DNA of 59,405 bases, counting the filler, from Jimgerdemannia flammicorona (Eukaryota), in NCBI GenBank assembly GCA_003990765.1. It is 2 parts of 2 records of this genome, joined end to end, with 100 filler letters (N's around TTAATTAATTAA, not from the genome) between each part and the next. Parts side by side here need not be neighbours in the genome. Positions count along the whole stretch, not along the records: positions 1 to 29,662 come from RBNJ01000480.1; 1 more part is not named here. The stretch is one strand, 5' to 3'. Shown here piece after piece: positions 8,591 to 42,329 of this stretch. Made by a program: the position numbers and the translations under genes. Every line of letters begins with the position of its first letter. Position 1 is the first letter of the stretch. The notes under the pieces were generated by a model that saw nothing but the letters and a program-made list of their open reading frames with translations, did not search any database and was not told the DNA's origin.

Positions 8591-8902
8591 CTGGGCCATC
8601 GCAGAAACCTCGTTTAGTTTTAAGCTGGCTTATATAAAGTATTCTCAATAATGTCATTGTTTCTATGAGATAATTACCATTTTAGGTGACGCGCTTCTTT
8701 TATGCATCTCAGGCCCTCACACTTTATTGTGGAAGTGCTTATTGTCAAATGTAACAATCCTACTTTTGGCGAAGTTTATTAAAAAGTACCTTAAGGCCCA
8801 TCTGGATTGGTACCCTTTTGACCAAATGGTAAAGTGGCATCGATCACGTGGTTTCAACGTCAAAAGCGTCTGCGACACAAAATTTTAGATAAAACGCATT
8901 CA

Positions 8903-10435: not shown

Positions 10436-10900
10436 TGTCACACTAAATTTGAAGAACCACAACAACCCAAAACAAATACAAACAGATCTACAAACAAACA
10501 TACCCTCAGTTATCTATAACTGTATCTGCTCTGACATCTAGTAAGTAATTGTCAACTCTGCTGCCAAACCTGAACTCTTGGAAAATATCTATAGTCTGAT
10601 ACTCTGCCACTTTGTAGAAACCAGATAAACTGTCTTGAATATAATTAATAAAGCCTACCAAATTGGACAAATCTTAAGTTACTTTCAAATCAGATGTCTC
10701 CTAGAAGAACTAAATAATTATCATCAAAATTCAGATATAACTGATCTATCTTACTACTAAATAACTATTACCTATAAATATCAAGAACTATTTACTGATA
10801 TTAGTAAATATTTTCCATCTTTATATCACTACTAGTGAGATGATTAGTACTCTTACTTATGGAAAAATCAATAATATAAACTAAGATATCTAATCAATAT
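10436..10900 (+). mobile_element. Degenerate LTR fragment of a third family, encoding a diverged homologue of the family-1 LTR ORF
   Basis: Starts TGTCAC where CpG content collapses. Translation IYNCICSDI**VIVNSAAKPELLENIYSLILCHFVETR*TVLNIINKAYQIGQILSYFQIRCLLEELNNYHQNSDITDLS...QELF...FPSL/ITTSEMISTLTYGKI is collinear with the family-1 LTR ORF. Confidence 0.8.
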
Positions 10901-10972
10901 ATAGTATATATGTATATAATAATAATATAATATTTAGTCAAGTCAAGAGCTTTAAATATAATAATGATATAA

Positions 10973-12330
10973 TTAGTACTTCTAAATAAATTAAATTAAT
11001 TCAAATTAAATTGAATGGAGATTGATTTAAATTAAATTAAATTAAATTAGGAATTTTTATATTTGAATTAAATTTGAATTAAATCAAATTCAATCTAAAT
11101 TGAGATCTGATTTGATTTAATTCAAATTAGTTAAATTGAATTAAATATCAATTTAATTTAAGATTTTAGTAGCTTATATTAGGATATAATTAGTTTTTTA
11201 TTTAAAAAATATATTACTTGAAATTTACATATTACTAATATATATAGAAATATATATATATATTCAAATATTTACTATATATATGAACTTATTTTATTAA
11301 TAATAGATATAAACTCTTTAATGTAAGTATGAACTACTATTTTATTTCTTTTTTTATTTACAAATACTTCTGTGAACATTTTTCTCTACAGATATTTTGC
11401 TTTTACAAATAGTTCTTTCTATTATATATCTTGCTCTATATTTTACTCATCTCTCTCTTAGATCAGACCATTCTTATTCAATAAAAGAGAAATATCAGAA
11501 ATATTAATCATCTTGTCATTTTCATCTAAGTTAATATTTTTGTATAGATTGTGAACTATTTTTTCAATCTTAAGTAGATTAATATAATCACAAATCTTAT
11601 TGATCATTCTGAACCATTTCATATATATTTTCTTGTCTTTTCTTTTGTTGAAAGTTCTTAGTAATATATTAGACCAGGTAATATAATCTAGCTATAATTA
11701 TATAAATAGATAAGTATATACCAAATAAGTATATACTAGTAAATATAAATCTATAAACTTGAAAATATACTTACAAATATACAAATAATAATAACTATAT
11801 AATGGTTAATATGTTTATCTTTTTGAAACACATTTATAAACTGAGATTTCTATTTGAAAAATATGAAATAGAGTAATTACTTTATATAGTTACTATATAG
11901 AATGACTTTCTAAGCTCATTCTTATCATCTTTTAGATAAATGAAATTATTCCAGACTCATAAATATTATATCACTTATTGGTAAGTATAAGTAAGATTTT
12001 TTGAAGCTATATATAGATCTTGGCTAGTTTATATTGAAGATTTGATTAAACATTTTATCAAAGACTTCATGAATATGAGAATAGTAGATTGTAATTTGAT
12101 AGTATAGCTATTTTTTTTAATAAAAATGAAAATAGTTGAGTTCATGAATAGCCAAATAAATATATGAACAGAATGTGAATGAAACACTCACTATAACATA
12201 AATTAAACCATCAATCTTTGGCCTTTAAGCCTACATCTTTCAAAATTTTAACAATAATGTCTGTTTTCAGATTACTATCATACTTTGAAAAAAGATCTTT
12301 AAGAAAAAGGTATTGAAGAAGCATCCTTAT
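10973..12330 (-). mobile_element. Extremely AT-rich decayed repeat, possibly a hAT-like DNA transposon relic with subterminal pentamer repeats (10980-11165)
   Basis: Almost no CpG. Arrays of AATT(A/G)A-like units in both orientations; only weak transposase-like peptide remnants. Confidence 0.3.
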
Positions 12331-12458
12331 GCACTGGACTCTGAGTATTACGAACATCATGCGTGAATGCTGTGCTCAAATTCATTAAAACTTACAAGAA
12401 AAATTCACGTGCACAGCTGGCTTATAAACAATAATGACCACAGCACTGTCTTCAGTAT

Positions 12459-13248
12459 CTACGGCCTACTATTCTTAGCCGGCGTTGTTGGAAGTTCACC
12501 AAAAGACCACCTTTGCTCATCAATTTGTACCAGATCCTTCCTCTTGCGTTTGCTATGTGCACGCGAATGAGAAAGTGAGACATTGTTGGCGTGGTCGCAA
12601 ATTGTCTTCAGCGTGACCTGAAAATGAAGTGACATGACAGTTAGAGGCTACATATCATCAAAGCAACGATGATGACATTATATGCATATGGTACCTTGAC
12701 ATCTGACATGAGCGCATAGAAACTTTCAAGGAACGCGAGCGTTTTCAGAGTGTTAGGCATTTTTGTACGGGAAAGTCTTCCCAGACGCAGCACGTTCGTC
12801 GCTCTACAATCCATGCCATATGTTTCGTGAGTCCACCCTTAGTAGAGGAATAAAATGATGCATCCATAAGTCTCTACAGCTTCTGAAATTTCATAACTGT
12901 ACATTTTACTTACTGTACACTTTACTTACCCCAGGACTGCATGCCTAGAACGGATGTGTTACGGAGATCCTCTTCAGATGCATTGCAGTTGGATGTAAAA
13001 AAGGTGTATAGCACATCACGCATTGCCACAGCTAGATCAACTCGATCTTCGAAAATCTTCTTATGATGGGCCATCGGGAGGCCACCGCTTCGGAGACCGA
13101 TGATAGCTTCGAGTTTATCAATGCTGTTCTTCAGAGTGCCCCGAAAATCGCACTTTTGACCAATCCGAGCACGCAGACCACTGAACGACCTTCATTGCGA
13201 CGGTAGGCTGAAGCCCAGCAAACAATTTCTCCATTACAAAGTTGCAGG

Positions 13249-13286
<38 letters not shown>

Positions 13287-13806
13287 GAGAAGTATAAATA
13301 TATGTCTAATCATGTTCCTTGCTTACACAGCTCTTTGCCTATACTTACACGTCCATATTTAATTCCTTCTTGTCCAAAAATCTCTTTGCTAGCATGTTTG
13401 GGAAGGCATTATCAAACGCGGCCTCGGAGACAGGGAGATCAACTTCGGCCAGGTTTTCGGCACTGCATGATAAAGGTTAGTGTGTTTTGGACATAAGCAA
13501 AAAGTGAATTATAATCCAACGTTGCTTACTTACTATGTGGTAACGGCACGTCTTACAATAGCGATCTCGTCACTGAGTTTGATGTCGTTATTCTTTTCGA
13601 TGACTTCCGGGGTTAACCTCTCAATCGCACTGATGATATTTTTATTATCTTCTTCATTCGTTATCTAAAAGAGCATGTAATAATATGAGTCAAAAATATT
13701 GTAAAATCTGTAACAAGATAAATATTACCTACCTTCAAAGAAATACAAAACTGCATCTGGTATGTCCGACTCAACTAGCTTTGAAACTTTGAATGATTTC
13801 ATTCCA
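12459..13806 (-). pseudogene. 3' half of an intron-containing host pseudogene (restriction-endonuclease-fold/Crinkler-like family), separated from its 5' half at 28704-29616
   Basis: Exons such as KLEAIIGLRSGGLPMAHHKKIFEDRVDLAVAMRDVLY...VLGMQSW, WTHETYGMDCRATNVLRLGRL...FYALMSDVK and VTLKTICDH...SRP*. GT-AG introns, frameshifts, CpG retained. Confidence 0.6.
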
Positions 13807-15658
13807 TAGAGTGCAGTGGGCTTCTTGTCAGTTGGAGATATTGCAGCTAGAATGAGCCAGGTTATTGGGCTGGGAGGATGTAGAAGACTGGAGACTGGAG
13901 TGTGCCTGATTGGAGGTGGAGGAGTTGAAGAGGTTGTTGAGAAAGGAGGAGGAGACTCATGTGTAGGAGATGACTACTAGGTTAAGGTGGCAGGGGTTGG
14001 AGAGGGTGAGAGATCTTCTAAGTATTTATCAAGACTTCTTCAGGCCCAGAGAGTAAGGCAGAGGTGGGATGGAGTGCTTGATGAGAAGGGCTCTTTGGTG
14101 TTTGAAATGTAGTAGATCTTAGATTCTTTAAAGAAGTGATGGAGAGGTCTATAGAGTAAGAAGGAAGGGGGTGCAGATGAGGAGGCTATCAGATATACTC
14201 TAGAGGATTGATATCCTCCAATGGTAGATAGTATTGGTAATCTGACTCTGCTAGTCCAGGAGAAGGAGATTTTATAGATTTTAGTAGCTATAAAATTAGA
14301 TATAGCTTTGAGCAAGAATGGTCTGTCTTGGGACTTTTAGAAAAAGATAGTAGGGGTCTCAGAGATGTTGGAGAAGATAGCAGTACTTGTAACTTTATTC
14401 TTGTGACTGGAAAGTGAGTTGAGAGAGAGGACCTTAGTCTAGTGGTACTGCTATATAAGGATAAGAGTAGGAGAGAGAATTGGAAAATTGACAACTTATC
14501 ATACTCTTGGATATAGACAGGAAGCTGGTCACAAAAGTGCTTGTTGGGAGACTGCAGAAGATAGTACAACAGGTATTGGGTGAGGAGCAATAGGGTTTTA
14601 TTAGAGGCTAGCTTATTAGAGATAAGACAGAATAGGTATATAATATAATTAAGAAGATAAGAGCTTGTAAACTGAATGAGAGATTGATCTTTCTGAATCA
14701 GAAGAAGGCCTATAATCATATTCAGTAAGTCTGGTTAGAGAAGATATTAGATATAATTAGTATTTCTTATTAATTCTGAGTGTCTATAATCTAACTATTA
14801 AAGAATAGTAGAGTAGTACTTATATATAATAGCTATTATAGTACTGCTTTTTTATTATAGAGGAGAGTTTTTCAGAGAGACCTATTTTTCTCTATTTTGT
14901 ATACTCTATCATTGGAACTATTTATATATAGATAGAATTTGCTATAAAGTAACTAAACTCTTAGTTTTTAATATAATCTAGAAGATTGAGATCTTTGTAG
15001 ATAATATAGTAATTGGTCTAAGCTCTATAGTAGATATAAATATACTATGGGTAATGATAGAATAGTATAAGAAGTACTCTGGGACAAAATGTAACTAGTA
15101 TAAGTATGAGACAATAGTTTTAGATAATAGTTTGATGAGTGGAAACATTATTGGAATAATTTTTCCAGCTAAAGAGACAGTGAGGTATTTAGGTATCTTT
15201 TTATCAGTATATAGCTCTGTTTTGTCTAAAGCTTGATGAGAGAAAAAGATTGGTATCTAGAGAGAGACCCTTCAGAGCTAGAGGGGGCACTATATCTCTC
15301 TGGTAGGCTGAGTGTCAATTCTTAATTTTTATTGATTATTCAAGCTATAGTATCTGGTATATTACTTGGATTTTTCAGCCTAGGTAGTAAAGAGGTTATT
15401 GAAGATAGCTAAAGACTAGATCTAGACTAAGAGATGGTATCAGATAGATTAGAAGGTCTTAGTGATACCTATAGATAAAGAAGGTCTTAATCTGATAGAC
15501 TTTTCTAAATAGTTATATTATCTGAGAGCTTAGTGGTTAAAGAGAACTATTAAGCTATAGGGAGATAAGTGAGTACTACTGATGCAGAAGGTCTGAGAGA
15601 TAAGGTTCTTCTCTAGAAGCTCTTTGAGTGATCTACTATTATTGATTAGCCTAGAGAG

Positions 15659-15764
15659 CATTAAATATTTATAGTATAAGAGCTTCTAATAGAGAGTAAT
15701 AAATGAGACTCATTAAATGCTTATAGTATAAGAGCTTCTAATAGAGAGTAATAAATAAGACTCA
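15659..15764 (+). repeat. ~52-bp tandem duplication inside LINE-A
   Basis: cattaaat(a/g)(t/c)ttatagtataagagcttctaatagagagtaataaat(g/a)agact occurs twice. Confidence 0.85.
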
Positions 15765-16141
15765 TTATATTAATTTGCAATAGTGAGATAATGAGAGAGA
15801 GGTATATTAGAGTTCAGCAATGTAGCAGTAAGATAGGCTACTTTGGGTAAATCTTTACTGATTAAATTTAACATAAATACTGAAGTGAAGTACTAGAGAG
15901 AGATAGAACAGAATTTGTAGTCAGTTGGCTAGTAGATAGCTGAGATCAGCAAAGAGTAGAACTGGACTAGTATTTGGTCCTAGAGTCAGAAAGTATAATG
16001 ATAGCTTTCTCTAAAGTTCTAAGTAGTATAATAATGCTTACTGAAGAGAAATATCATATTGAACTTTTATTTAGAGTCACTTTTTCCCTAGTAATAGAAA
16101 GAGTATAATATATAGAATAAGGTATAAACTATAAGCCCTAC

Positions 16142-18172
16142 TGTAAGAGGGTTGCTTTTTAGGGTAACTGTTACGTAGTTCTGGAAAGGTTTTCTGGATA
16201 TTCTGGATGTTCTGGAAGACTGTTTTCTTATGGTCAAGATCAATTTCATATAGAGTACATCCTCTATACTTATTGATTTCAAGATTGGATTGATGTCTCA
16301 ACCAAAGTCCTTTCTTGGACTAGTTCTGGATGTTCAGGATTTTCTGTATTTCAGGAAGTTCAAGAAACTAAGACCAGCTTAGTTGAATTGGCATATCGCT
16401 GCAGACAATACCCAATTAGGAAATTTCGTGATAGGGTTAGGAGTAGGACCTAACAGGAAGCGGATTTACTTAAGAGTGGTTTGTGGGTTATGGAATAGGT
16501 TTATTCGCTATTCATGATATTGCTATACTAGGAATAGTTGTGTGAAGGGATATTGTGGAGAAGTATTCAGGAATGTTCTTGTGTGTTCGAGTCTGAGATT
16601 CTGAGGTCTGGGGGAGGGGGTATTTATACTAGTGAGGGGCTATCTGGACTATGCTGAATATGGATGTAGTACTAAGTGCCTTGCTGAGTTGGAATGCAGT
16701 CATATAGTACAAGTGTGATCTGACATATCAAGAGATCATCTGACTGCTGAGTCAGTTCACAGTCATGTCATATAAGGCTAATCTATCTATACTATGACTG
16801 CTAGACTATTTATAGGTCATAAGCACTATCTGGGTAGTCTTCGATGACATCACTATTGATTGCATCATCTCTGATGAAGTAGTTATCTAGGAATAATGGT
16901 TTGCGGATTACTTCTTCTTGTTCGCTGAGATAATAATACATTGGAACTTCATCTCCATCCCATAGGATAGCATCATCTGTCTCGTATGCTGGATAAGGTA
17001 TTGGTGGGCAGAGGATGGGTGTATTGTCTTTGCTTTTGTCAGATTCACTGTCTGCATACCTTCTATAGGTTATAGTACTATGAGTCGCGGGGTTGTAGTA
17101 AGCTGGTGGCTGTAGTTCATGTCGCTCATACTCAGGTGGTGGAGTTGTTGGTTCGATCTTGAGGGTTGTCTGGAGGTACAGGTTGTGTTCTCCAGTCTCT
17201 TCATTATAATTGAAGTAATCAGGGGTGAACTTGGGTTGGTATTCGTGCCAGTGGTCATTGTTCCAATAAGTCTCATATGCAGTTATAAACTGTTGTAAGT
17301 TCATCAGCAAGGTTGGTGGAGTGATCAGGGTTGGCAGAGATCCTTGGCTTGAGGTCATGTCAGCATCAGAGGGATCATTGTCTTCTGCTTCATCTTCGTC
17401 GAAGTGGATTATATCGTAGACATCCTTCATGGCATATTCGACTTGAGGCATTTGTAGAATATGGTCATCAGGGTGTGAGAAGGTTCTGTCTGTGGTCTGG
17501 ACATATTCAAGGTACTTGTGGTTGAGTTCTTGTATCATGTCATCGATTTGGCCATAGGACAGGGTAGCAACCATTTCACTAGTAGTGACTCAGAGGTAGG
17601 GAATAAAGGTGTTATACTCATAGAAGAGTTCTCGATGTTTGCGGGTGATGAGCTTCTGGTGTTGAGACATCTGGGTAATATCTGTATCGTGGTGATGTTC
17701 GACCATGTCTTCTAAGAGGCAGCCGATCTGGTAGTAGCTTGATATTTGTCCGATCTGGTGGGCCTCGTTAAGTATATTCAGGGTGTTCCATCGGGCTTCC
17801 ACGAAGTAGAGGGGTGCTAGGCTATGGATATTCATGAGGGGCAGAGGGGGTGTGGCTCAGTTAACAATGGCATTCCAAATGTCAGTGTGGATACAGTTGT
17901 AGATCTCAGTGGTCATGTTTGTGTGTTTGGAAGTTGTGATTATTGTTTGTTTTGGTTTTCTGATTTGACGTGTCTCGGTGCTTGGTATATATGCATTTGG
18001 TCCTGATTGGTAAGGTTCCGTTTGTGTAGATCTTGTGTTCTGTGACTTCATATTGACTCAGCCTTGTGCACTGTGACTTCGGTTTGACTCAGCTTTATGA
18101 TTAAGCAGGTGATTTCCAGATTTGTTCAGAGGTCGCATATAATTTCGGTGGCTTGGAGGTTGTGCACTTACA
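16142..18172 (-). repeat. Family-1 3' LTR (2031 bp)
   Basis: Direct repeat of 24695-26725; minus-strand TATAAATA at 16628-16621 and AATAAA at 16505-16500. Confidence 0.97.
16810..18051 (-). pseudogene. U3-encoded accessory ORF (~410 aa), 3' LTR copy, with two in-frame TGA stops
   Basis: ORFs 18051-17857, 17835-17590 and 17574-16810 share one frame. The TGA at 17590 is CGA in the other LTR. Confidence 0.85.
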
Positions 18173-18173
18173 A

Positions 18174-18186
18174 CTCTCCCCTTCTT
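18174..18186 (-). other. Polypurine tract, family 1
   Basis: AAGAAGGGGAGAG, 1 nt before the 3' LTR. Confidence 0.9.
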
Positions 18187-18599
18187 AGCTTTTGACATCC
18201 TCGTCGGGGCGTTCTAATTTGTTCTAGTGTTGTTACACCATTTGGAAGGTCAAAAGTCTGGTAAGGTCCATTTTCTCAGAAAGTGGCATGCTCATAGTAC
18301 AGTTGCCTAATGCGTTGGATTCACATGTTAAAGAGTCATGTGTTCAATGCCGTGCACCGGAAGTGATTCTGACATCATTCACTGCTGGAGAATTTTCTCT
18401 AAGGAATCTTCTTAAATGTCTACGCCTTGTTTCCCACCAGTGGTATAGAGAGAATAGGCTTGCTTTCAGTTTTTTGCTATTTTTCCAGGGATTCGCTATT
18501 CCTGTCTTATTTTGCTGAGTTCTTGACTTAGTACATGATAGTTATAATATTCAGGAGAGTAATATATAGTATATATAGATAGGTGCAGAGTATTTGGTT

Positions 18600-21500
18600 C
18601 TAGTTGTTCAAGGAATCATATTCCTGAACTAGGTCAGTAGCATTCTGGAGATTGGTCTTGGGTTCCCAGATTGCATTGTGGATCAGGTAACCTTTCCATT
18701 TGACAAGGTACTCAGGATGGTTCTTGTTACTGCGTTTGTTGAGAATCTGCTCAACTTCGTACTCCTCTTGGTCATTAATAATGATAGGTACAGGTGGTTT
18801 GGTGGTCTGGTTTGGAAATAGTTTGTCATCATTTTCATTGTATCGCTTGAGACATTGAACATTAAAGACTGGGTGAATCTTAATGGTATCTGGTAGCACC
18901 AATTTGTAGGAGGTTGGAGAGACTTGTGCAATAACTTCAAATGGTCTAATGAACTTGCTATTTAGCTTTGTGGATGGTCTGTGCTTGAGGTTGTCAACTC
19001 GGTATCCTCTGATGTCTAGTAGAACTTTTTCTCCAATATCAAAAGTTTCTTCTTAGCGGTGTTGGTTAATATACTGTGATTGTTGTTCTTGAGCTAGCAA
19101 TAGATTCTTGATGGCAATCTGGCTTAAATTGCGCATTCGGAGTAAGAATTCTTCAACAGCTTTGACTGTGGAGGGTTCTTCAGTGGTTCAGATAAGTGTC
19201 AATAGGGTGTTTGGATTTTGTCCAGTGTTGGCGAAGAATGGGGTCATTCCAAAAGAGGCTTGCTTGCTATTGTTGTAGGCAAACTCAACTGTGGTGAGGT
19301 GTTCATGCCAATCATCTTGTCTGTAGGAGACATAGTTCCTTAGCATTTATTCCAGAGTTCGGTTCATTCTTTCGGTTTGGCCATTGGTTTCAGAGTGAAA
19401 GACTGTGGATAGTGCAAGTTTTATTCCAAGGTGCGCATGGAGGGCTTTCCAAAAGTGGCTGGTGAATTTCGGATCTCAGTTACTAACAATGATCTTAGGA
19501 AGACCATGATAGTGGAAGATGTTGTCAAACAAGAGTGTGGCTATATCTGGTGCTGTTGCAGTAGTGGTAGTAGGCACAAAGTGGGCTTGTTTGCTGAGGT
19601 AGTCCACAAAGACAACAATTGCATCTTTCCCATTCTTGGTTCAGGGTAGTTGTACAATGAAGTCCATAGAGATTTGTTCCCAATTTGCGGATGGTACTGA
19701 GATAGGGTGGAGTAAGCCAGGTTTTGCTAGTGTTGAGGTCTTGTTTCGTTAGCAGGCATCACAGAAAGTGATGTAGGTTTTGAGCTGATCTGCCATGCAG
19801 GGCCAATAGAAGTTTCGGGAGATAACTTTGTAACATTTATTAAATCCTAAATGTCCAGCTGTAGGGGCATCATGACATTCGAATAGGATAGTCCTTCAGA
19901 GGTCTCGGTTGTTTGGGACATACAGTCTGTCCTTGTAGTAGATAGCATTGTCCTTGAGTTGGTATTGATTGTACCAGATATGCTTGTCAGTATCATCATT
20001 GTTCAGGATTTCTCGGAGTGCTTGAGCTTCCTTATCATCAACACATGCTGCAATGATTTGTTCCATGATAGTATTGGTAACCAAGGTCAGAGTTTGGATA
20101 ACCTCTTCAATTAGTGGTCTGGAGATTGCATCGGCAACAATATTTTCCTTGCCAGGGTGGTACTGGATTTCGTAGTCAAAGTTGGTGAGAACTTTCATCC
20201 ATCTAGCTTGCTTTCGGGAAAGGGTAGCCTGTGTCTTGATGTTGACTAATGACTTGTGGTCGGTTAATACAGTGAAGTGTGCTCCTTCTAGATATGGTCG
20301 CCATTTGATCAGAGTGTCTATGATAGCTAGCATTTCCTTCTCGTAAGTTGCATAGTTGATTTCGGCATCATTGAACTTGCAGGAGTGATAGGCCACAGGG
20401 TGTCCTTCTTGCATGAGCACTGCTCCAAGAGCTAGGTCAGAGGCATCAGTGGTGACTTCATATGGTAGGGCAGGGTTTGCTGCTTGAAGTACTGGAGTGG
20501 TTATCAGGGCATCTTTCAGCGCTTGGAAGGCAGTATCTTGTTCAGATCCCCAATTTACAAGATTGTTGAAGTCTTTCTCTTGTTTCATGGTCCAAGGTTG
20601 TTCTTGTTTCTTACTGTGCTTGGTCATTTGGGTGAGGGCAGTAGCGATTTTAGCAAAGTTGGCAACAAATCACCTGTAATAGTTTGCTAATCCCAGGAAT
20701 GACTGGAGGTCTTTCAGCTTCTTGGGTGTGGGCCAATCTTTGATTGCAGAGATTTTGCTGGGGTCCACTTTGATTCCATTTGGTGTGACAATGTGTCCAA
20801 GGAATTGAATTTCTTTCAGAAGAAATTCGCACTTGCTGAGTTTTGCAAAGAGTCGGTTTTCTCGAAGTTTCAGTAGTACTAGTTCAAGGTGTTCAAGATG
20901 TTCCTCCAGGGTTTTGCTGAAGACTAGGATGTCATCAATATAGATAACAACGAATTTGTCCAGGTATGGATGTATAATGGTATTCATCAGTATCTGGAAG
21001 GTTGCTGGAGCATTAGTTAAGCCAAAGGGCATAACCAGGAACTCGAAGTGTCTATAGCGAGTTCGGAAAGCTGTCTTGTAGATGTCTTCTTCTTTCATAG
21101 CAATTTACCAGTAACCATTTCACAGGTCAAAAGAGCTCATGAATTGTGGGTTGGTGAGCCTATCGAATATTTCATCAATCCTTGGTAGTGGGCAACAGTT
21201 CTTGATGGTCTGTTCATTGAGATCGTGGTAGTCAATGCATATTCACAGGTCTCCTCCTTTTTTGACAACAAAGAGGACTAGTGTACCATAGGGTGATATG
21301 CTGGGTCTGATGAATCCTTGTTCTAAGAGTTTGTCAATTTTCTTCTTGAGTGCATCAATTTCTCTCAGAGACATGTGGTAGATTGACTTGAAGGCTGGTT
21401 TGGCATCTGGGATAGTCTTGATTGCATGGTCTACTGCTCGTTTGGGAGGTAGGCCTTTTGGGAGCTTCTTTGGGAATATGTCTCGGAATCTCTGGAGTAG

Positions 21501-23732
21501 TGGTCTGACACGGCTGTCAACTTTGGAAAAATCTTCTTCAGAGTTCTTGGGTTCTTCTTTGGATGGTCGGATGGAGATGGCAAAGAGAGGGCATTTCTTG
21601 GCCAATTTCTTGAGTTGTAGCTTATTGATGTGGGTGATCTTTAGTCCAGGGTCACTAGAGTTGAGTGAGTCCTTTTCGCCTTGTAGTTTGAAGTTGTGGC
21701 GTCCTTTCTTGATGGTCAGAGAATGGTTTACCCAATTGATCATGGAGTTCTCTTGTTTTAACCATGGAGTCCCAAGGATGATTTCATTGTCAGGAAGTGG
21801 TACGATTTGGAGGGTAACATGTACTCAGTAGTTGCCAATTCGGAAGGGTAGATTGCGGACTTCTTTGCTAATAACATGTGAGGTTCCATCAGCTGTAGCA
21901 ACTGCTTGAGTTTGCTGTACTGGGGAGATGAAGACCTTGAGTCTGTTGGCTGTCTCTTTGTTGATGAAGTTGCCTGAGGCACCACTGTCTATCATAATCT
22001 TGACAGGTGCTCCATTAACAAAAGCCTTAAGGGTGAGTAGTTTGTCTGATCCAATGCTGGTGATTTCAGCTATAGGAGTCTTTCTTCTATTGATTCTTCT
22101 TTGAGCCAGTTCATTGATATAAGAGAAGTAATCATCAATCATTCGGGAAGAGTACATTCCAATACCATGAGGGCATCAGCCACTTGGTATATATCCATCT
22201 TCTATCTTCTTGTAGAATTGTTCTTCTTTGCTCATGGTAGGTTGGGCTGGGGCCTTGTTTGATGAACCAAATCCTTTGGATCCTCGGATGGTGGGCAGTA
22301 GTTCAGGGACTTCCTTGACTATCAGGGTTGACTCGATTTTTTCAAATAGAATCTAGGCAATGCAGAAACCAATAGGGATCTTGAAGGGTATCCAACTGTG
22401 GTTTCGAATGAGGACAATGATTTTGCCTGTATAATCTTCATCAATGACTCCTCCTTCTACTGAGAGTCCTTTCAGCGCTAGGCTGCTGCGACAGCATATT
22501 CTTCCAACATGTCCTTCAGGGATTTGGATACTGATTCCTGTATAGACTTGTTTGACTTCTCGGTTAGAAACTGTAGCTTCTTCAGCTGCATACAGATCAT
22601 ATCTGGCTGCTTTTTGACTTCCTTTGGTTGGGGCCTTAGCAGTTTGTCTTAACTTGACAAAGTCTAGTGTTCTGGTGGTCAGGTTGTTGAGGTGGTGCAG
22701 AGTGGTAACAGTTGCTCATATTGCTGTTTGGGGTTTTCGGTTGGGGTAGGCACTGGCCATGTGTCCTGTCTTTCAGCAATAGAAGCATGCTCCACTTCTT
22801 CGAAGTTTATTCCTTTTGCCTTCAGTAAGTTTCTTGAAGGTACTGGACTGGGTGGGTTCAGGATTTCTGGGTGTCCAAGAGGTGGATGTGGAGGGAGCTC
22901 GGGATGCTTCATGCTTGGGTTCTTCTTTCTTGGTCCAAGTCCTTTCCTTGTTGTTAAATTGCCTTCGGGGCAGAATTGGTCCAGCTGTTAGGATTCGCTT
23001 GACCATGGTCTTGATTCTTGCTAGGCACCATTGTTGGTGATCACAACCAACTGGGCGGCCTTGTTCTCGGATTTTTCTAGTAAGCTATTCAGGCAGGGCA
23101 TCAAATAAATGGTCTGCTCTTGTACCATTTCGTGCTTCGTCATTGGCAATGTATCCTAGGCCAACAGTGTTCAGGAGTGACTCGAGTTTTGTACAGAAGG
23201 TTTTAAATTCTTCTTTGCCATGTACATCGAATTTGAGATTGCGGAGTTTTACTCAAGATTCGACAATTATGGTCTCGCTGCGATATTGAGCAATCATGAG
23301 TTATTTGAGTCCAGGGGCTACAGGATGGGCTCTATATCCTGGGGCATTGTTTGCTGCATTCTGAGCAACTACTGCAGGTCAGGTATCCCATGTGAGAGGT
23401 TTTTCAGGAAGGGTTCGCCACCATTCTTCGGTAGGTCCTTAGAAGAATATAACAACTCAGCAGACATAGGCTGTAGTTGTAGCAAAGAGTTGTTCCAGAG
23501 TGTGGTCTTGATTGTTTGTCAGAATGCAGTCAGCAACTCGTTCATTGGTCCATTAATTGGCTTCAAAGTTGGTGTCAACTACACTAATGAAGCTTTGGAC
23601 TTCTTGTGCAGTACCATTGAAGGTAGGTAGGCTCAGATTTTTGGTAAGTCGGGTCTGTTCGGCTAAGGCAGTAATGGTTGCTGCCATTATAGCTACTTGG
23701 GCTGTGAGATCCAGAATCTGTTGGTTCACCAT
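18600..23732 (-). pseudogene. gag-dUTPase-pol polyprotein, apparently one frame, broken by nonsense transitions
   Basis: Zn knuckle CFYC*KTGHMASAY(C) at ~22750-22790; protease IMIDSGASGNFI; RT KTAFRT...[13 protein letters not shown]...YIDDILVFS; RNase H VTTDASDLALGAVL...YEKEMLAI...TDHKSL; integrase HHCC and ISMDFIVQLP; GPF motif; chromodomain EYEVEQIL...YLVKWKGY...WEP (18600-18770). Confidence 0.95.
22260..22670 (-). pseudogene. dUTPase domain between the Gag Zn knuckle and protease (family 1)
   Basis: All five trimeric dUTPase motifs: AARYDLYAA, RSSLALKG, GGVIDEDYTGKI, CIA*IL, RGSKGFGSS. In frame with the upstream Zn knuckle. Confidence 0.93.
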
Positions 23733-24679
23733 GTTGATTGCTAGAGGTGGTTGGACTGCTGGTAGTGGTGTTACTGGTACTACTTGAGGTACTGGTGCAG
23801 AGTGTAATGGAGTTCTTTGGGTCTGTGTAAGTTGCTGGAGTAGTAGTTGTGGATTTGGAGTAAGGGCTTGATAGATAGCTATTTGTTGCTGTATAGGTGT
23901 ATTCTGTCCTGATAGATGTGTGTCTCCTTCGGTGGTGTATCCGGAATCGAATTCGGTGAGATACTCCTCCTCTTCTTCGGTTTGGTCCCCGTGTAATTGG
24001 GTTTGCTCGGCGTCAAAGTAGATAGAATCAGTTATATATCTGATTTCAGATGGACTTAATTCAAAGTCAAGTTCAGGTTCGGTATTGGTTTCAGATTCAG
24101 GTAGGGCTGTAGTAGGGCCTGCTTCAAGTTCGGGGTCAGGTAGTTGATGAAGGGTTTCTCTTGCTTCTTCCTTAAGAATATGGCAGGCCTTGCTGTTCTG
24201 GAATCGGTAGTATAATGCAGTCTTGGTCCTGGTGTGGTGAAAGTCGGTAGAGTTGAGCCACTTGGCTATAGAGGCTTGGGCTTCATGAGGAACTAAGGCT
24301 AGAAAGACTACTGCTGGTTGTCCTAGGTCGCTCAGATTTGTGGAGCTAACAAAACTCTTGTTGAGAAGAGTAAAGAAGGCTTCAATAAGACCTTCTTCAT
24401 CTTGACTTGCTGGGTGTAGTGCAAGGAGTTCGGTGAATAGGGTTTCACCTATTTGCTGGTTTAACTAGAGTACTTCTTTCTTAGAATGAAGTTTGTCCCA
24501 CTTGTTGCAGGTGTGGAGGTCAAATTGTCCTTGTACGTCAGGTTCAATTCTCTCCAGATTGTCAGATTGTTCAAGATAAATTCCAGTTCAGAGGTTGGGC
24601 TTTATACCAACTTGTAGGAATTCGCAGAGGGGTTTGTAGCGGGGTGAGGAAGCGTCTTGAAGCAGAATTGGATTGTAAA

Positions 24680-24691
24680 CCACTGCTACCA
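24680..24691 (-). other. Primer-binding site, family 1 (TGGTAGCAGTGG; possibly initiator tRNA-Met)
   Basis: Starts 3 nt after the 5' LTR with TGG. TGGTAGC resembles tRNAi-Met 3' ends; host tRNA not available to confirm. Confidence 0.75.
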
Positions 24692-24694
24692 AGT

Positions 24695-26725
24695 TGTAAG
24701 AGGGTTGCTTTTTAGGGTAACTGTTACATAGTTCTGGAAAGGTTTTCTGGATATTCTGGATGTTCTGAAAGACTGTTTTCTTATAGTCAAGATCAATTTC
24801 GTATAGAGTATGTCCTCTATGCTTATTGATTTCAAGATCGGGTTGATGTCTCAACCAAAGTCCTTTCTTGGACTAGTTCTGGATGTTCAGGATTTTCCGT
24901 ATTTCAGGAAGTTCAAAAAACTAAGACCAGCTTAGTTGAATTGGTGTATCGCTGCAGACAATACCCAATTAGGAAATTTCATGATAGGGTTAGAAGTAGG
25001 ACCTAACAGAAAGCAGATTTACTTAAGAGTGGTTTGTGGGTTATAGAATAGGTTTATTCGCTATTCATGATATTGCTATACAAGGAGTAGTTGTGTGAAG
25101 GGATATTGTGGGAAAGTATTTAGGAATGTTCTTGTGTGTTCAAGTCTGAGATTCTGAGGTCTGGGGGAGGGGGTATTTATACTAGTGAGGAGCTATCTGG
25201 ACTATGCTAAATATGGATGTAGCACTAAGTACCTTGCTGAGTCAGAATGCAGTCATGTAGTACAAGTGTGATCTGACATATCAAGAGATCGTCTGACTGC
25301 TGAGTCAGTTCACAGTCACGTCATACAAGGCTAATCTATCTATACTATGACTGCTAGACTATTTATAGGTCTTAGGCACTATCTGAGTAGTCTTCAATAA
25401 CATCACCATTGATTGCATCATCTCTGATGAAGTAGTCATCTAGGAATAATAGTTCGCGGATTACTTCTCCTTGTTCACTGAGATAATAATACATTGGAAC
25501 TTCATCTCCATCCCATAGGATAGCATCATCTGTCTCGTACACTGGATAAGGTGTTGGTGGGCGGAGGATGGGTGTATTGTCTTCACTTTCGTCAGATTCA
25601 CTGTCTGCATATCTTCTATAGGTTACAGCACTATGAGTTGCAGGGTTGTAGTAAGCTGGTGGCTGTAGTTCATATCGCACATACTCAGGTGGTGGGGTTG
25701 TTGGTTCGATCTCGAGGGTTGTCTGGAGGTACAGGTTGTATTCTCCAGTCTCTTCATTATAATTGAAGTAATCGGGTGTGAATGCAGATTGGTATTCATG
25801 CCAGTGGTCATTGTTCCAATAAGTCTCATATGTAGTTATGAACTGTTGTAAGTTCATCAGCAAGGTTGGCGGAGTGATCAGGGTTGGCAGAGATCCTTGG
25901 CTTGAGGTCATGTCGGCATCAGAGGGATCATTGTCTTCTGCTTCATCTTCGTTGAAGTGGATTATATCATAGACATCCTTTATGGCATATCCGACTTGAG
26001 GTATTTGTAGGATATGGTCATCAGGGTACGGGAAGGTTCTGTCTGTGGTCTGGATGTATTCGAGGTACTTGTAGTTGAGTTCTTGTATCATGTCATCGAT
26101 TTGGCCGTAGGACAGGATAGCAACCATTTCGCTGGTAGTGACTCGGAGGCAGGGAATAAAGGTGTTGTACTTATAGAAGAGTTCTCGATGTTTGCAGGCA
26201 ATGAGCTTCTGGTGTTGAGACATCTGGGTAATGTCTGTATCATGGTGGTGTTCAACCATGTCTTCCAAGAGGCGGCCGATCTGGTAGTAGCTTGATATTT
26301 GTCCGATCCGGTGGGCCTCGTTAAGCATATTCAGGGCATTCCATCGGGCTTCCACGAAGTAGAGGGGTGCTAGGCTATGGATATTCATGAGAGGCAGAGG
26401 GGGTATGGCTCAGTTGACAATGGCATTCCAAATGTCAGTACGGATATGGTTATAGATCTCAGTAGTCATGTTTGTGTGTTTAGAAGTTGTGGTTGTTGTT
26501 TGTTTTGGTTTTCTAATTCGACGCATCTCGGTGCTCGGTATATATGCATTTGGTCCTGATTGGTAAGATTCCGTTTGTGTAGATCTTGTGTTCCGTGACT
26601 TCATATTGACTCAGCCTTGTGTGCTGTGACTTCGGTTTAACTCAGCTTCATGATCAAGCAGGTGATTTCCAGATTTGTTCAGAGGTCGCGTGTAATTTCG
26701 GTGGCTTGGAGGTTGTGTGCTTACA
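24695..26725 (-). repeat. Family-1 5' LTR (2031 bp)
   Basis: Direct repeat of 16142-18172; TATAAATA at 25181-25174. Confidence 0.97.
25372..26604 (-). CDS. U3-encoded accessory ORF, 5' LTR copy: 338 aa open (26388-25372); 410 aa if the single TGA at 26410-26412 is restored
   Basis: Long uninterrupted ORF wholly inside the LTR, with a helical-looking N-terminal domain and an acidic, Pro/Tyr-rich C-terminus. Function unknown. Confidence 0.85.
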
Positions 26726-27016
26726 CCTACTATACCTAGTATAGTCAAGCTATTGAATAATAACTAGTCTAGGTTTAATAGAGATATAATACTTAGAGAG
26801 TAATAGAAGAGAGTTTGGTTTATATAGTATAGGTTCTATTTTAATAAAAATCTATAGAACTTTGAGTTTATAAAAAAAAAAAACAAATTTGTGGATACTT
26901 TAATTGTGAAAAATATTATAATATAAGATAGGAAGAAAAGTTTATATAGATATTTAAATATTGGCTAAGAGAATATATAGTTATTAGTAACTTCTAAAAG
27001 ATAGTTAGAAATTATC

Positions 27017-29662: not shown

Positions 29663-29762
29663 NNNNNNNNNNNNNNNNNNNNNNNNNNNNNNNNNNNNNN
29701 NNNNNNTTAATTAATTAANNNNNNNNNNNNNNNNNNNNNNNNNNNNNNNNNNNNNNNNNNNN
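29663..29762. other. Assembly gap with artificial TTAATTAATTAA linker
   Basis: 100-nt N-run with a six-frame-stop 12-mer at 29707-29718. Confidence 0.95.
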
Positions 29763-32700
29763 TGCTTGAAAATCACTCTGTCTCCTATAACTCCAACCCT
29801 CTCCTCACTCTGTCTGTATATCTTCTTCACCAAACAATACTGCTGACTACCCTACCCATACCACCAACCTATCAGAGTATCCTCCATCAGTCCTTCCTAT
29901 TGCAACAGTCATACTCCAAAATCCAGATATCTCTCATCCTCAAATACATATAGCCAGTATTTACCCTAAAGTAAGCCATTCCCTCCCAACTCCTCCCACC
30001 AGTCTATCCTGCAGATCCTCCCACTGACCCCTCACACTATCTCCCCTCTGTATGATACTCAATCTCTTCTCAACCACTATCCAGAAGTCATTAAGTATCT
30101 CACACTCCTCTAGCCAATATTCAGGCATCTGTATAAAACTCCCTTTCTGTCCAACATTATAGCACTCCTCACAGTCAAAGGTTCCCTCTTCTACCAGATG
30201 GCCAGAGTAAAAGTTGATATAATATTCCTTCTTAATATATGCCACCAGACCACTTAATACTTCAGTGACAGCTACTGCCAAACCTCAGTACTCTAGTTCC
30301 AGATCTTGTTCTAGTCTCACTCTTTGTCAACACCTACTAACTACTATCTGCTGGGCCACAGATCCTGCCCCAACCCCCTCTGGCATTCAACCCCATCACT
30401 AATATCAAAGTCACCAAGAGGAGTGCCCCCTGCAACACTTGGTTCCATCTCTACATCACTGGGCCCCAAGGCCTTTCTCTCTCATATCCCTACTAATGAA
30501 TGCTAATACAGTATATCTCATCAGTGACTCCCTACTAGAAGCCCTTAAACTGCATATACCTATTGTTCTAAAGCCTAACCAAGGACAATAGATCTCTTGT
30601 GGATCCTCTTGATGAAGACCTCATCTCCTAGATCTTCTTCAATAGAGAAACCCAGCTACCTCTCCCCAGCTCAACAGCTCTCTTCAGCCACTATGCTCTC
30701 AGGCAGTGTACCTCTTTGAGAAGTCAACCAGCCCAAGTCCCCCTCTAGTCACCAGTAGGGACAAAATTTTCTAGCTAATCTGACTCCTCCTCCCTGGTCA
30801 GATCCATCCCTTAGTCAGTTTCAGCAGTCTCTTCACTACTTAGGCTGGGAAGTTCAGATGATATATCAGATATTACAACTTCAGCAGCCAGTAAGTATTC
30901 AAGATAGAAACATGCTCTGCCAGAGACAAGTAGTGGTCTCTCTAGCTTTACAGGGCCTCTCTCCAGATAACCACCCTCTGCTCCTATCAGAGTTTTGGAA
31001 GAATGAACTCATATATTGATAGATAGATGCCCAAGTACCTCACTGTCTCTCCAGCAGGGACAATTGTTCCAATGACCTCCTCCCCTACCAGACCATTATC
31101 CAGCACCATTTTTTCATACTTGTATCAATTTAGTTTAGCCCTAGAGTATACCTCATACCACTCCACAGTCTCCTGAGTTCCTCAATATTGGTAATCAAAC
31201 CTAGACTGACCACCATATTACCCACAAAAGCACCAACTTTCCACTCAATGCTATAAACTGAAAGCTCTCCTATCTTCTGCTGAATCTTATCCATTAGGGG
31301 ATCTAAGAAAAGTGCATACAAAATAGGAGACAGTAGGTCCCCCTGGAGAACACTTCTACCTAGAGGGAAAGTCACCCCTCAATGCCCATTATATGAGTAC
31401 AGCCCTGCTCTCTTCCAATAGACTGACTATTGCTGCTCAGAACTGATAAGGGACTCCAATCCTGTCTAGCACTATTGCCAACCAGACCTTCTAAACATAG
31501 TCATATGTCTTCTCCTGATCCAAGAAGACCAGGCACCCATCCAATCCATAGGCCCATATCCCTTCAATAATACTATGTACCCAAGCTATACTATCCCAAA
31601 TGAGTTGGCCTCTGACAAATCCCTACTGCTCTACTCCCAAGACCTGCTGGGCCACCTTCTACAGTCTCACTACTACTACCTTAGTAATTAACTTTCTGTC
31701 TATATCCAGTAGTATGATCAGTCTCCAGTTTCTCCAGTTCTCCCTCCTACTCTTGTTCTTATATAGCAGTACCACCAGCCCCAGATCTTGTTCCCCTACC
31801 CATCTCCCAGACTGCAGTACTAAGTCACAGAGTGTCCTCAGCTCTCCCAGCACATCAGGGATGTCCACCATCTTCTTCCAGAAAGCCCAGAGCAGGCCAT
31901 TCTCATCTGATACTCTACTCAATATAGTTGTAACAAGAATCTGGCAAATCTCCTCCTCCTGTACCAGCATCACCAGGTTGCTCAGCCCTTCTGCCTATAG
32001 TAGGTACCAATCCTCTAAGACAATACCAATGAAGGTATTGTCTGCCCCACCCTCTTCCTCACTCCACAAGCCACTCTACTGCTCCTTCAGTAATCTGAGA
32101 ATATCCTGTATACCATGTACCAATGTTCTCTCAGAATTGAGAACTCCTTCCCACCTCTACTGAACCTTCCTTACCTGAAGAGCTCTCATGAGAAACTTAG
32201 AGGGCCTCTCTCTTTCCTCCAGCCTCTGTCAATAGAGATACATTACCATACTCTGCACCTGCACCTCCTCCTCCTCCCACAATACCTATTATAACTCCAC
32301 AACCTCCTTTCTCACTTATAGCAATCTCCAATCTTTCACCTCCTCCAGGGCCATCAAATCTGCCCAATCTTCCAACAGTCTCATCAATCTAGTAGAGGCA
32401 CACACTCTCTTCTTCCTCCTCTATCTCTCAGCCACTATACCTGACTCTCTCCAATAGACTCTAGCAGCCTTCTTCAGCCTCATCCACCTAATGCCAACTG
32501 AGGCACCTTCTCTTATCCACCCCTCTACCCTCTGCCAAATATCATCAGCTCACTTGTCCTATAGTATCTTGTTGTCTATCAGAGAGGAGTTGAGGTACCA
32601 ATGTCCTGGTCCATCCCCACTCCCCCCAAAATGCCCCTGTCCCAGCAGTCCCCAATAATCAGACCACAGATACTATTCTACCTCTAGAGACCTCCAAAAA

Positions 32701-35452
32701 TCCAGACCTCAGCAGTCTGCTGTCAAAATCCAGTCAATCCTTGTCTCCAGACCACTCACTCAATGTATATATATCCTTCTATCACTCTATAGCTCTCTGC
32801 CAGCATCCACCAAAGCACTCAGTCTCTCTACTTCCTTTCACACCTCCAAACCTCTACTCTTTCTCTCCACCCCCCACTCTCTATCAGTTCTATCCAACAG
32901 TACATCTCTGACTATATTAAAGTCTCTGCCAAGCAGGTCTACTCCAGCCTCTGCCAGAGTCTCCTCCTCCTGGAGACCCTTTACCCACTCTACATACTCA
33001 CCCCTTACTACAGGACAGTAGTAGGATCCAACTATAACTAGTTTCTGATCAGTGCAAATCCACTCACCCCAGACCAGTCTGTCTTCCCAGTTCTGTACAT
33101 TCTGTATCTCCTCTCTGCTCTTCCTGACCAGAATCCCAACCTTGCCCTTCCAAACTGCTTCCCCTCTCCATTTTTTTTATCTATTCCAGTTTATCCAAAT
33201 TATCCTTACACTTGATATCCTGCAAAAGAAAGAGATCTGCCTCCAATCCCTTCAGCCAAGCAAAAATGTTCTATTGACAAAATGAACCCCAGAGCCCATT
33301 CATATTTAAAGAAAAAATATTAGTTGTATTGTTCATAAGAAATAATGTATAATAGTAAGTATATTCTCTACTGCTCCATATTTATCTCCTCCTGAGTCAG
33401 GTCTAGATCATATTTTGCAGCTTCTATCTTCTCTTCAGTTATCTTAGTCTCCAGTCTAACCAGAAGTTTAGTGAGCTCCCTATTCTCTTTCTCCTCAAAT
33501 TCCTCATAATATTCTAGGCAGGCCTCCTGCTAGAGCTACAATCCATACTGCTCTGCCTAACAGAAAGCAGCCCTCTCACTCAGTCCAGCCTCTCTCTCCT
33601 TATCAACCTCATACCCTTTTTCCTCCAGGAAAACTGCAAGAATCTCTACCTTCAGTGCCTCCACTACTCTCTCACTATATAGGATATATGTCTAATTCTC
33701 ATCACTCATCACTTACAGGTCTACCTCTCTCAATTCCTCTACTGCAAAGTTGTTTATCATCTTGCATATCCATAGCTGATTTCTCATCTCCTTCCCCCTG
33801 GGAGTCACTGGCTGCCCTCTATTCAGCATTAAGATATCAGCTCCTATACTTGCAGCCTCATCCCACTCCTCCTCCTGAACATCCACCAGTTCATCCTCAC
33901 TCACTACTACTATCTGCCTCTCCTTTGGTACCTCTGGAACTCCAAAGTGTACTCTCTGAGCTCCCCACATGGGCACATCCTCTGCCACTCTACTCCTTGA
34001 AGCTGGACCTCATCTAATAAGCAGTGTAGAGATCAGAGATAACTCCCAGACCTCAAAGGTGCCATCTGCATAAGAGTTATTTCCCTTCACCTCCTCTCCC
34101 CCTCCTGGCCCCTTCCCTACATTCTCTCTATTCTTACTGGCCCAGATACTCTCCTTGACTCCTCTCATGATTTCAACACCACCAGCATCCTTCTTTGCTC
34201 TGCTTTCCAGTTTCACCAACAGCTCTCTCTGTCTTTTATATTCTTGGGATCTTTCCCATCACCTCTTATCTACCTGAATTCTCTTTCCATCTACCACTTT
34301 CAAATACATCAACTCAATATACATCTTCCAAGCCTTAGCCCTCCACTCTACAGCACCACTCAGCTCTTCCAGTACCTCCAGCAGATCCTCTTCCTCCTCC
34401 TCACTCCCCTTCACCCTCATTACCTTGCACAAGAAAACCCCCCAGACCATCACTGAAGACCAGTCTCTAGCCTTTCCAGTAGCTTTCTTCCCTACCAACT
34501 AAATTTGAATATCAACATCTCTAGTCCTAAATGAGGTCCCCTCTCAGACCTGAAACCCAACATTGACTACCTTGTCATACTCAACCATAACTTCCACAAC
34601 TCTCCTCTTTATCTCCTCAGTAGTCACTATAGGTACTCTCTTCACTAGTAATTGTACCACCCTGGGGTCCCATCTCAAGCAACATATCATCAGAACACAT
34701 ACTTCTCTAACTATCAACTCCACCTTCAGAGCCTCCTCCAATGGTCCAGTCTTCTCAAAGCCAATCTCTACTCCTTTTAGTCTCTTTAGAAACTTCATAG
34801 ATACCACTCCAGCCACCTACTTAGCAATTAGCCCTAAGACCATTTTCACCATCACTGCCAAGCCCCAGAAGCACAAGGTAACTGTGAACTCTGAGATTGA
34901 CTTCTTGTGTAATGGTGCCACCACCAGTCTCATTATACTATCTGCCAGATTACTAGGCCTCATGCCTTTCCTACTGCTCAGTCTACCATCAGTAGTCTCA
35001 TCTAGATTTTTTTCCTGATCACCTATCATACTTTCATCAGCAGTCACCCTCAGTCTCTATACCATCAGCCCCACTATCCTGGCCCCCCAGAGAGACTCCT
35101 TCTTGAGGCTGCTGCCCTGCAGTCTTTGCCATCTCCTTGCCCCTCCTAAGTCAGCCCTCCAGTTCAGCTCTCTGCTGACCTCTCTTCACCTTATCTACAA
35201 AGCTTGCCCTCTCTGTCCCCTGACCTCCAGCACTGTCCCCTCCCCTATCATATTCTCCTGCCATCAGGCCCCTCATGCTTCTCCCCAAGTCAGGGCCTCT
35301 CCCCACATACTACCAGTCAAATGTACCCAGGCCACTCTGCCCAGTATGTACTTCAGAATGCTTATTGATTACCATAACTAGTAGTTTTTCTCCAGAAACT
35401 GTGTTGAAAGTATTGCCAAAAGATTTTATAATCTGAATATTACTGGAGAAAG
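29763..35452 (-). mobile_element. LINE-C: near full-length degenerate L1-clade LINE (ORF1 ~35330-33360; ORF2 from 33336; 3' end lost in the gap), abutting family-1 copy 2
   Basis: MNNTTNIFSLNMNGL endonuclease start; NWRLIILLDIDRKLITKVV; QGDLLSPILYALF; CEEC...EYWLEEC. Collinear with 52601-58165. Confidence 0.92.
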
Positions 35453-42288: not shown

Positions 42289-42329
42289 GTTCATTTCTAT
42301 ACCATCTGCTGTTAATTAGTTATTCTAGT

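Follow-up and report, generated by a model that had tools for sequence, protein, structure and literature searches.

A probable gene inside the long terminal repeats of a dUTPase-bearing chromovirus of Jimgerdemannia flammicorona

Can the long terminal repeat (LTR) of a retrotransposon house a protein-coding gene? Retrotransposon LTRs are regarded as regulatory DNA that does not code for protein, and they are usually masked as such. The question is posed by a stretch of 59,405 nucleotides from the fungus Jimgerdemannia flammicorona (GenBank assembly GCA_003990765.1), made up of two joined parts and referred to here as the window, in which the LTRs of a Ty3/gypsy retrotransposon (element 1 of what we call family 1) contain a long open reading frame (ORF). 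An earlier note on this DNA had placed the frame in the U3 region of the LTR and regarded it as an accessory gene. The evidence set out below suggests, with a probability of about three in four, that it is a real, selected gene that belongs to the element and lies inside the LTR, upstream of a predicted promoter. Coordinates of the features are collected in Table 1.

The LTR reading frame and the case for a gene

In the 5′ LTR of element 1 (copy A), the ORF spans sense positions 122-1354 of the 2031-bp repeat and lies wholly inside it. Reading from the ATG at 26604 meets a single internal stop in 411 positions, a TGA at codon 65, and the part that follows (25372-26388, minus strand) is open for 338 codons. 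The coordinates and length given in the earlier note, with the start about 120 nt into the LTR, were confirmed, and its proposal that the TGA at 26410 replaces an ancestral CGA is supported: the equivalent codon of copy C, the 5′ LTR of a second, truncated element (element 2), is CAA for glutamine (41935-41933), and P0002, a metagenome relative described below, has arginine there, both of which fit an ancestral CGA. The frame as a whole holds 2 stops in 411 positions, against 13-37 in the other five frames across the same stretch. None of 2000 first-order Markov shuffles of the LTR gave at least 338 open codons (maximum 214, mean 96). Furthermore, the G content of the ORF is 0.29 at the first codon position compared with 0.11 and 0.13 at the second and third. 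The true start may be the ATG at 26469 rather than that at 26604, since P0002 begins there and a TATATA motif lies between the two ATGs. The predicted product of 365-410 residues is basic at its N-terminus and helical in the middle, and its tail is strongly acidic and rich in tyrosine and proline (pI of about 4.2-4.5).

Selection on the ORF was assessed by pairwise comparison of the natural LTR copies, which include the 3′ LTR of element 1 (copy B) and a fourth LTR, copy D, at the end of the window. Sites that are shared by copies A and B and differ in copy D represent, in part, the divergence of active lineages. Across codon positions 1/2/3 these differences fall as 5/4/23, against 9.5/10.2/12.1 expected under a context-aware null (p = 4e-4); 23 are synonymous and 8 non-synonymous, where 11.2:16.6 was expected (p = 1.7e-4), an excess of synonymous change that is based on only 31-32 differences within the C-terminal 182 codons. 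Copies A and B, which derive from one insertion, served as the control, and here the neutral null fits (28/16/45 against 32.8/21/34.6; p = 0.08), as expected for decay after insertion. In codons that carry a single change between elements 1 and 2, the non-synonymous/synonymous ratio (N/S) is 1.25 for the LTR ORF (94 N, 75 S), and the controls are 1.19-1.29 for the region of the protease (PR), reverse transcriptase (RT), and RNase H (RH) and 1.71 for gag. The LTR ORF evolved under purifying selection. Of the outcomes that the earlier note had named as grounds for giving up the gene, two were looked for and not found: in place of a ratio of non-synonymous to synonymous rates (dN/dS) near 1, synonymous changes dominate between lineages (23:8), and in place of a recently captured host gene, there are 0 host homologues among about 15 billion proteins.

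A HMMER search of 1.84 billion representative proteins returned only two relatives of the family-1 LTR protein, both of them metagenome fragments. P0002 (128 residues, 92% identity) begins at the methionine of 26469. P0001 is fully open over its 247 residues, with 63% identity (158/250), 82% positives, and indels of whole residues only (2 residues each); neutral simulations run at its divergence remained stop-free in only 4/500 and 15/500 cases. Searches among about 15 billion proteins gave no homologue from outside transposable elements. Pattern scans for the DNA of homologues gave 74 and 68 matches in metagenome contigs, 9 in viral contigs, and 29 in genome contigs, and 0 were confirmed in each. 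The motifs PPEY and PPAY (residues 260 and 270) were considered as late-domain-like signals and dropped, since P0001 does not have them.

The relative synonymous codon usage of the LTR ORF correlates with that of the gag-pol region of the element (r = 0.78), compared with r = -0.22 for the exons of a neighbouring host RNA-polymerase gene, which are a small sample. Because codon usage follows gag-pol and the only relatives are fragments that resemble transposable elements, the gene belongs to the element.

The position of the ORF in the LTR and a second family

The relationship of the ORF to the signals that direct transcription depends on the motifs of the LTR. The presumed promoter of the genomic RNA is the box TATAAATA, which is identical in all four LTR copies and sits within the block of the LTR that is most strongly conserved; AATAAA, the presumed poly(A) signal, follows 123 nt further downstream. 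Both placements in the earlier note, which had the ORF ending about 190 nt ahead of the TATA box and the AATAAA beyond it, hold on re-analysis. A motif scan also identified a candidate CCAAT and TATATA pair close to the start of the ORF, and its TATATA is retained in copies A, B, and C. In sense positions of the LTR, the order in family 1 is TATATA 182, ATG 257, stop 1354, TATAAATA 1545, and AATAAA 1668.

If TATAAATA drives the genomic RNA, the ORF would lie in U3, that is, in the 3′ untranslated part of that RNA. By the established mechanism of reverse transcription, an ORF in U3 would be copied to both LTRs and would stay in solo LTRs. We put at somewhat under even odds the proposal that the LTR protein is made from its own mRNA, starting at the CCAAT/TATATA pair and ending by way of the AATAAA of the LTR. 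A separate mRNA is favoured because a splice from the leader over 6.5 kb would be unusual for a fungus and because CCAAT/TATATA precedes the ATG at 26469. Such an mRNA would start within the first 250 nt of the LTR, each LTR then being a self-contained gene cassette. A promoter belonging to the LTR gene, as suggested by the second TATA-like box, would allow expression from either LTR of an element or from a solo LTR. Of 16 sequencing runs listed (best share of words 0.20), none was marked as RNA. A peak of read depth at 24797-25084 in run X13, which is merely guessed to be RNA, was rejected as a signal of transcription, since the same peak occurs in DNA runs.

A second Ty3/gypsy family in the window has the same arrangement. 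The pol of family 2 is about 31% identical to that of family 1, and its internal region (45088-50806) includes a dUTPase (Pfam E 8.3e-22). Its LTR ORF has about 271 codons in full, of which 181 and 163 are open in its two LTRs; 0/1000 shuffles reached 181 codons and 2/1000 reached 163. Three open metagenome homologues of the family-2 LTR protein are known (215-271 residues, 70-81% identity), and one of them, P0004, aligns across LTR sense positions 230-1084. Here the order is TATAAA 143, ATG 230, stop 1087, TATAAATA 1315, and AATAAA 1342 and 1472, so that the two families share an identical succession of TATA-like box, ATG, stop, TATAAATA, and AATAAA. The two LTR proteins are alike in charge, being basic at the N-terminus (+3 to +4 per 30 residues), neutral in the middle, and acidic over the C-terminal third, which ends in acidic-hydrophobic runs; the pI of both is 4.5. 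Because family 2 fills the same slot with an unrelated gene, the recurring feature is the slot in the LTR and not a particular protein. The presence of unrelated genes in this slot of two families looks less like an accident than like a recurring solution, and an LTR-borne accessory gene appears to be more general than the earlier note had it, with its U3 placement and its function as predictions.

A different placement, which we consider rather unlikely, puts the ORF in a portion of the LTR that is transcribed, either a very long R or a leader, where it would be the first cistron of a genomic RNA that starts at CCAAT/TATATA, in the manner of the extra 5′ ORFs of the plant elements Ogre and Retrosat2. 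The position of this pair 70-95 nt before the ATG at 26469, kept in copies A, B, and C, is consistent with it, as is the TATAAA of family 2, 87 nt ahead of its ATG; the U3 boundary is, moreover, a prediction from motifs. However, R would then extend over about 1.4 kb, and polyadenylation would have to bypass the sole AATAAA in its 5′ copy, 1.4 kb from the cap. The block of the LTR that is best conserved, and identical in 4/4 copies, is the TATAAATA region downstream of the ORF, and in copy C identity reaches 86% in the downstream LTR compared with 78% in the ORF. This conservation fits a main promoter downstream of the ORF.

Element 1, the decay of its LTRs, and the remaining alternatives

Element 1 is structurally complete: it is flanked by a perfect target-site duplication of 5 bp (GTAGG, at 26726-26730 and 16137-16141) and has LTRs with TG..CA ends, a primer-binding site (PBS), a polypurine tract (PPT), and the order gag-dUTPase-PR-RT-RH-integrase-chromodomain. 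The PBS-like sequence TGGTAGCAGTGG presumably matches a tRNA. Although its 6.5-kb internal frame is interrupted by 35 stops, Pfam places dUTPase at residues 685-811 of the read-through frame (E 1.5e-29), between the CCHC knuckle of gag and the protease, followed by protease at 882-998, RVT_1 at 1145-1302, RT_RNaseH at 1407-1505, Integrase_H2C2 and rve at 1595-1764, and Chromo at 1978-2026 (E 3.4e-14). These features, namely the LTR ends and target-site duplication, PBS and PPT, and the order of pol domains through to the chromodomain, assign element 1 to the chromovirus branch of Ty3/gypsy. The earlier note had called the LTR that of a chromovirus, and the Pfam order of pol with its C-terminal chromodomain bears this out. 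There is no env-like ORF in element 1, in which only 427 nt separate the stop of pol from the 3′ LTR. Element 1 is present in soil metagenome runs, and the junction between its internal end and the LTR start (26725 to 18173) is seen in contigs from three of four public runs; because this junction recurs, the LTR boundary holds in copies elsewhere. The gag frame is mostly open for about 400 codons ahead of its recognisable capsid/CCHC part (23500-24690, minus strand), and this N-terminal extension is acidic with Q/P-rich runs.

The earlier note held that each LTR carries the ORF. Traces of it do occur in all four copies, but only in copy A is it long and open. In copy B (16819-18051) there are 2 internal stops, one of them the TGA of copy A, and the terminal stop is lost. 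The remnant in copy C (about 40900-41992) has 20 in-frame stops, counted by eye, and three 4-nt insertions, and within the 182 codons of copy D there is 1 stop, along with a deletion of 1 nt. Copies A and B differ at 136 sites, of which 131 are transitions, about half of them at CpG, as expected from deamination of methylated cytosine. The C-to-T load is much heavier in copy C, where 88 of the 181 singleton C>T changes are in CpA context, a pattern that looks like repeat-induced point mutation. A fungal host is made likely by this bias of transitions towards CpG and CpA, by the type of element, and by its occurrence in soil metagenomes. A further stretch (10512-10878) probably derives from an LTR of a related family that is old and has mutated heavily; it is contained in a region of very high AT content (10000-16100, with a G + C fraction of 0.25-0.39).

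The reading preferred here is that of an accessory gene carried in the LTR of a dUTPase-bearing chromovirus, in a predicted U3, which would now be inactive in all copies of the window, and several observations weigh against it. None of the 4 family-1 copies in the window is intact. The TGA at codon 65 is common to both LTRs of element 1, so that the element probably transposed with its gene already truncated, barring use of the methionine at 26388, supply in trans, or a double CpG mutation; because of this shared premature stop, the LTR gene may be dispensable in cis. The open frames of the database homologues are ascertained, and the simulation test is weakened because databases call only open frames as proteins. 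The small number of differences behind the synonymous excess, given above, belongs here too. In Pfam no family reached its cut-off for the LTR protein (best E 0.1, to UvsY, at 13.5 bits against a cut-off of 22.8), and at E up to 1 there were two sub-threshold chance matches only; the best E in a sequence search of the PDB was 0.54, and the best score in the ESM Atlas was 0.86, under the 0.9 level of a lead, so that no weight was given to the hypothetical proteins of Mucoromycota that headed its named taxa. AlphaFold2 models were unusable, with a predicted local distance difference test (pLDDT) score of 34.6 for the 410-residue protein (3-row alignment) and 40.9 for its N-terminal 200 residues (7 rows). 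No family, solved structure, or Atlas cluster matches, and any function of the LTR protein is putative. The boundaries of U3, R, and U5 are predicted from the positions of motifs alone. Finally, homology between the LTR proteins of the two families was considered and was undetectable (best tblastn E 0.85; hhalign probability 0.3%).

Some of these points would suit the passive capture of a piece of a host gene, or of a different mobile element, that has no function for the retrotransposon. LTR retrotransposons are known to acquire foreign ORFs, according to a review (PMC6431247), the LTR protein matches no known retroelement domain, and element 1 apparently transposed with the premature stop present. 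Against capture stand the lack of a homologue outside transposable elements among about 15 billion proteins, codon usage that resembles gag-pol and not the host gene, and the predominance of synonymous changes between lineages, with constraint equal to that of pol for the same pair of elements. In addition, relatives at 63% and 45% identity retain the frame or conserved motifs, and a second family holds another conserved gene in the same slot. Together these observations make passive capture improbable. A chance open frame in an A/C-rich, T-poor strand would owe its length to a coding strand that is stop-poor by composition (shuffles reach up to 214 codons) and could appeal to a gene known from sequence alone and to low-confidence structure models, yet it can be dismissed in view of the absence of 338 open codons from 2000 shuffles, the concentration of lineage differences at third codon positions, and the homologous open frames P0001 and P0002.

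Parallels, possible roles, and neighbouring sequences

Genes in or near LTRs are a familiar part of complex retroviruses. For example, the sag gene of mouse mammary tumour virus (MMTV) is a superantigen ORF within the U3 of a betaretrovirus LTR and encodes a type II membrane glycoprotein. The fungal ORF resembles it in being a sense ORF of several hundred codons that lies wholly in the LTR, upstream of the promoter (here predicted), and so in both LTRs; the order with a dUTPase between gag and protease is also found in betaretroviruses. Unlike MMTV, element 1 has no env, and its LTR protein is acidic, with the character of a cytosolic or nuclear protein. In lentiviruses and foamy viruses, the genes nef and bel/bet, of accessory or regulatory function, lie at the 3′ end of the genome and reach into U3. 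They only overlap it, and are made from spliced or internal-promoter mRNAs of viruses that bear env, whereas the ORF described here is entirely inside the LTR. The foamy-virus protein Tas combines a basic part for nuclear targeting with an acidic activation part, a layout that the basic and acidic regions of the LTR protein resemble. No sequence similarity of the LTR protein to sag, nef, or bel was found in Pfam or among PDB sequences. With no env and no similarity to sag or nef, the likeness to complex retroviruses extends to layout alone.

The basic N-terminus and acidic C-terminus weakly suggest a regulator that acts in trans in the nucleus. That the LTR protein would act there on the LTR promoter of its family, either as an activator or as a copy-number regulator and dose-dependent brake, is an unlikely proposal on present evidence, although one that its composition brings to mind. 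A broader possibility, which we hold to be less likely than not, is that some fungal chromoviruses independently evolved the layout of a ‘complex retroelement’. The LTR would then be a gene cassette in which a promoter of the gene and the accessory ORF precede the main promoter, with one poly(A) signal for both; in the two families this slot holds two unrelated proteins that both run from basic to acidic. Every LTR, the many solo LTRs among them, could thus supply a regulator in trans whose dose follows the copy number of the family. It might activate the LTR promoter, act as a brake on copy number, or counter methylation or repeat-induced mutation.

Extra ORFs have been described in several other groups of LTR retrotransposons. 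In plant Ty3/gypsy elements, two sources describe ORF0 of Retrosat2, RIRE3, and RIRE8 and the extra ORFs of Ogre as lineage-restricted and of unknown function, in elements with unusually long LTRs, and as evolving faster than pol while under constraint (PMC3485330, PMC6431247). As there described, these ORFs are in the internal region, either after the 5′ LTR and ahead of gag-pol or past the end of pol; here it is the LTR itself that carries the ORF, in four copies. The LTR ORF is like them in being lineage-restricted and without a Pfam domain, and its N/S of 1.25 is comparable to the 1.19-1.29 of pol. LTR retrotransposons of bdelloid rotifers have captured accessory ORFs, some beside a dUTPase (PMC5408684); in the portion of PMC6431247 on these captures they are placed downstream of pol, around or replacing env, and none is described inside an LTR.

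Among fungal chromoviruses, the accessible text of PMC2864245 lists a dUTPase in PosPlaTy3 of Postia placenta, in elements of Phanerochaete chrysosporium, and in Tmt1 of Tuber melanosporum. Both families in the window are like these elements in being chromodomain Ty3/gypsy retrotransposons with a dUTPase in the polyprotein. That text describes no LTR-borne ORF; a figure legend has an ‘add. ORF’ of unknown function in some element, with its position given only in a figure and a supplement. The accessible text of a survey entitled ‘LTR Retrotransposons in Fungi’ (PMC3248453) does not mention an LTR-internal ORF either. The phrase ‘ORFs within the LTRs’ in PMC6673714 was considered as a precedent and set aside, as it means ORFs between the LTRs. 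In literature searches, which did not cover subscription papers, no description of an LTR retrotransposon with an ORF in its LTR came to light. A conserved gene in this position would escape both the annotation of transposable elements and gene callers, would be duplicated with each insertion, and would persist in solo LTRs. If expressed, it would be a fungal counterpart of the regulatory genes that complex retroviruses carry and a simple means for an element to sense or control its own copy number.

Table 1. Positions, along the whole window, of the features of the two LTR-retrotransposon families.
Feature	Position	Strand	Remarks
5′ LTR of element 1 (family 1, copy A)	24695-26725	−	2031 bp, TGTAAG...CTTACA; blastn self-comparison
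3′ LTR of element 1 (copy B)	16142-18172	−	2031 bp; 93.3% identity to copy A
Internal region of element 1	18173-24694	−	gag (CCHC), dUTPase, protease, RT, RNase H, integrase, SH3, chromodomain
PBS-like TGGTAGCAGTGG	24680-24691	−	3 nt past 5′ LTR
PPT AAGAAGGGGAGAG	18174-18186	−	1 nt ahead of 3′ LTR
LTR ORF, longest reading	25372-26604	−	410 codons and stop; in-frame TGA 26412-26410
Alternative start ATG	26469-26467	−	gives 365 codons
CCAAT (26563-26559) and TATATA (26544-26539)	26539-26563	−	70-95 nt upstream of ATG 26469; motif scan, putative function
TATAAATA box, presumed promoter of genomic RNA	25181-25174	−	190 nt downstream of ORF stop; putative role
AATAAA, sole one in LTR, presumed poly(A) signal near R/U5 boundary	25058-25053	−	putative role
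Copy C, 5′ LTR of truncated element 2	40201-42238	−	79% identical
Copy D, solo or 3′ LTR, cut by window end	58166-59405	−	C-terminal 182 ORF codons at 58857-59404
Degenerate AT-rich remnant, more distant homologue of the N-terminal domain	10512-10878	+	45% identity over 104 residues, E 1e-20
Family-2 LTRs (Ty3/gypsy)	about 43537-45100 (3′), 50805-52369 (5′)	−	87.4% identical, ~1.55 kb
Family-2 LTR ORF, 3′ LTR	44001-44858	−	collinear with 271-residue P0004 over whole length
Family-2 LTR ORF, 5′ LTR	51269-52127	−	within LTR at about 50805-52369

The window is a nest of transposable elements beside host genes. Two diverged copies of a non-LTR retrotransposon resembling long interspersed nuclear elements (52749-57477, plus strand; 30475-35345, minus strand) carry endonuclease/exonuclease/phosphatase and RT domains, and the second of them abuts the point at which element 2 of family 1 is truncated, at about 35.4-35.5 kb. 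Between copy C and the family-2 element, at 42301-43142, lies a sequence of about 367 bp that is repeated in direct orientation (80% identity; spacing 475). Two runs of N, of 44 bases each, are at 29663-29706 and 29719-29762.

The host RNA-polymerase exons at about 900-7830 (minus strand) encode a largest subunit (Pfam RNA_pol_Rpb1_5, E 4e-29 on 2365-3198), which we take from its sequence motifs to be that of Pol III, and the gene includes a long poly-proline run at about 1200-1290. In the Atlas, a fragment of this polymerase gave a weak lead to Basidiomycota, with the phylum known for 5 members. Pieces of an ORF at 8822-9652 (plus strand) contain GPSGVG and LSGGEMQR...LLLD, which we take to be a Walker A-like motif and an ABC-signature-like motif, presumably from the gene of a small ABC-type ATPase.

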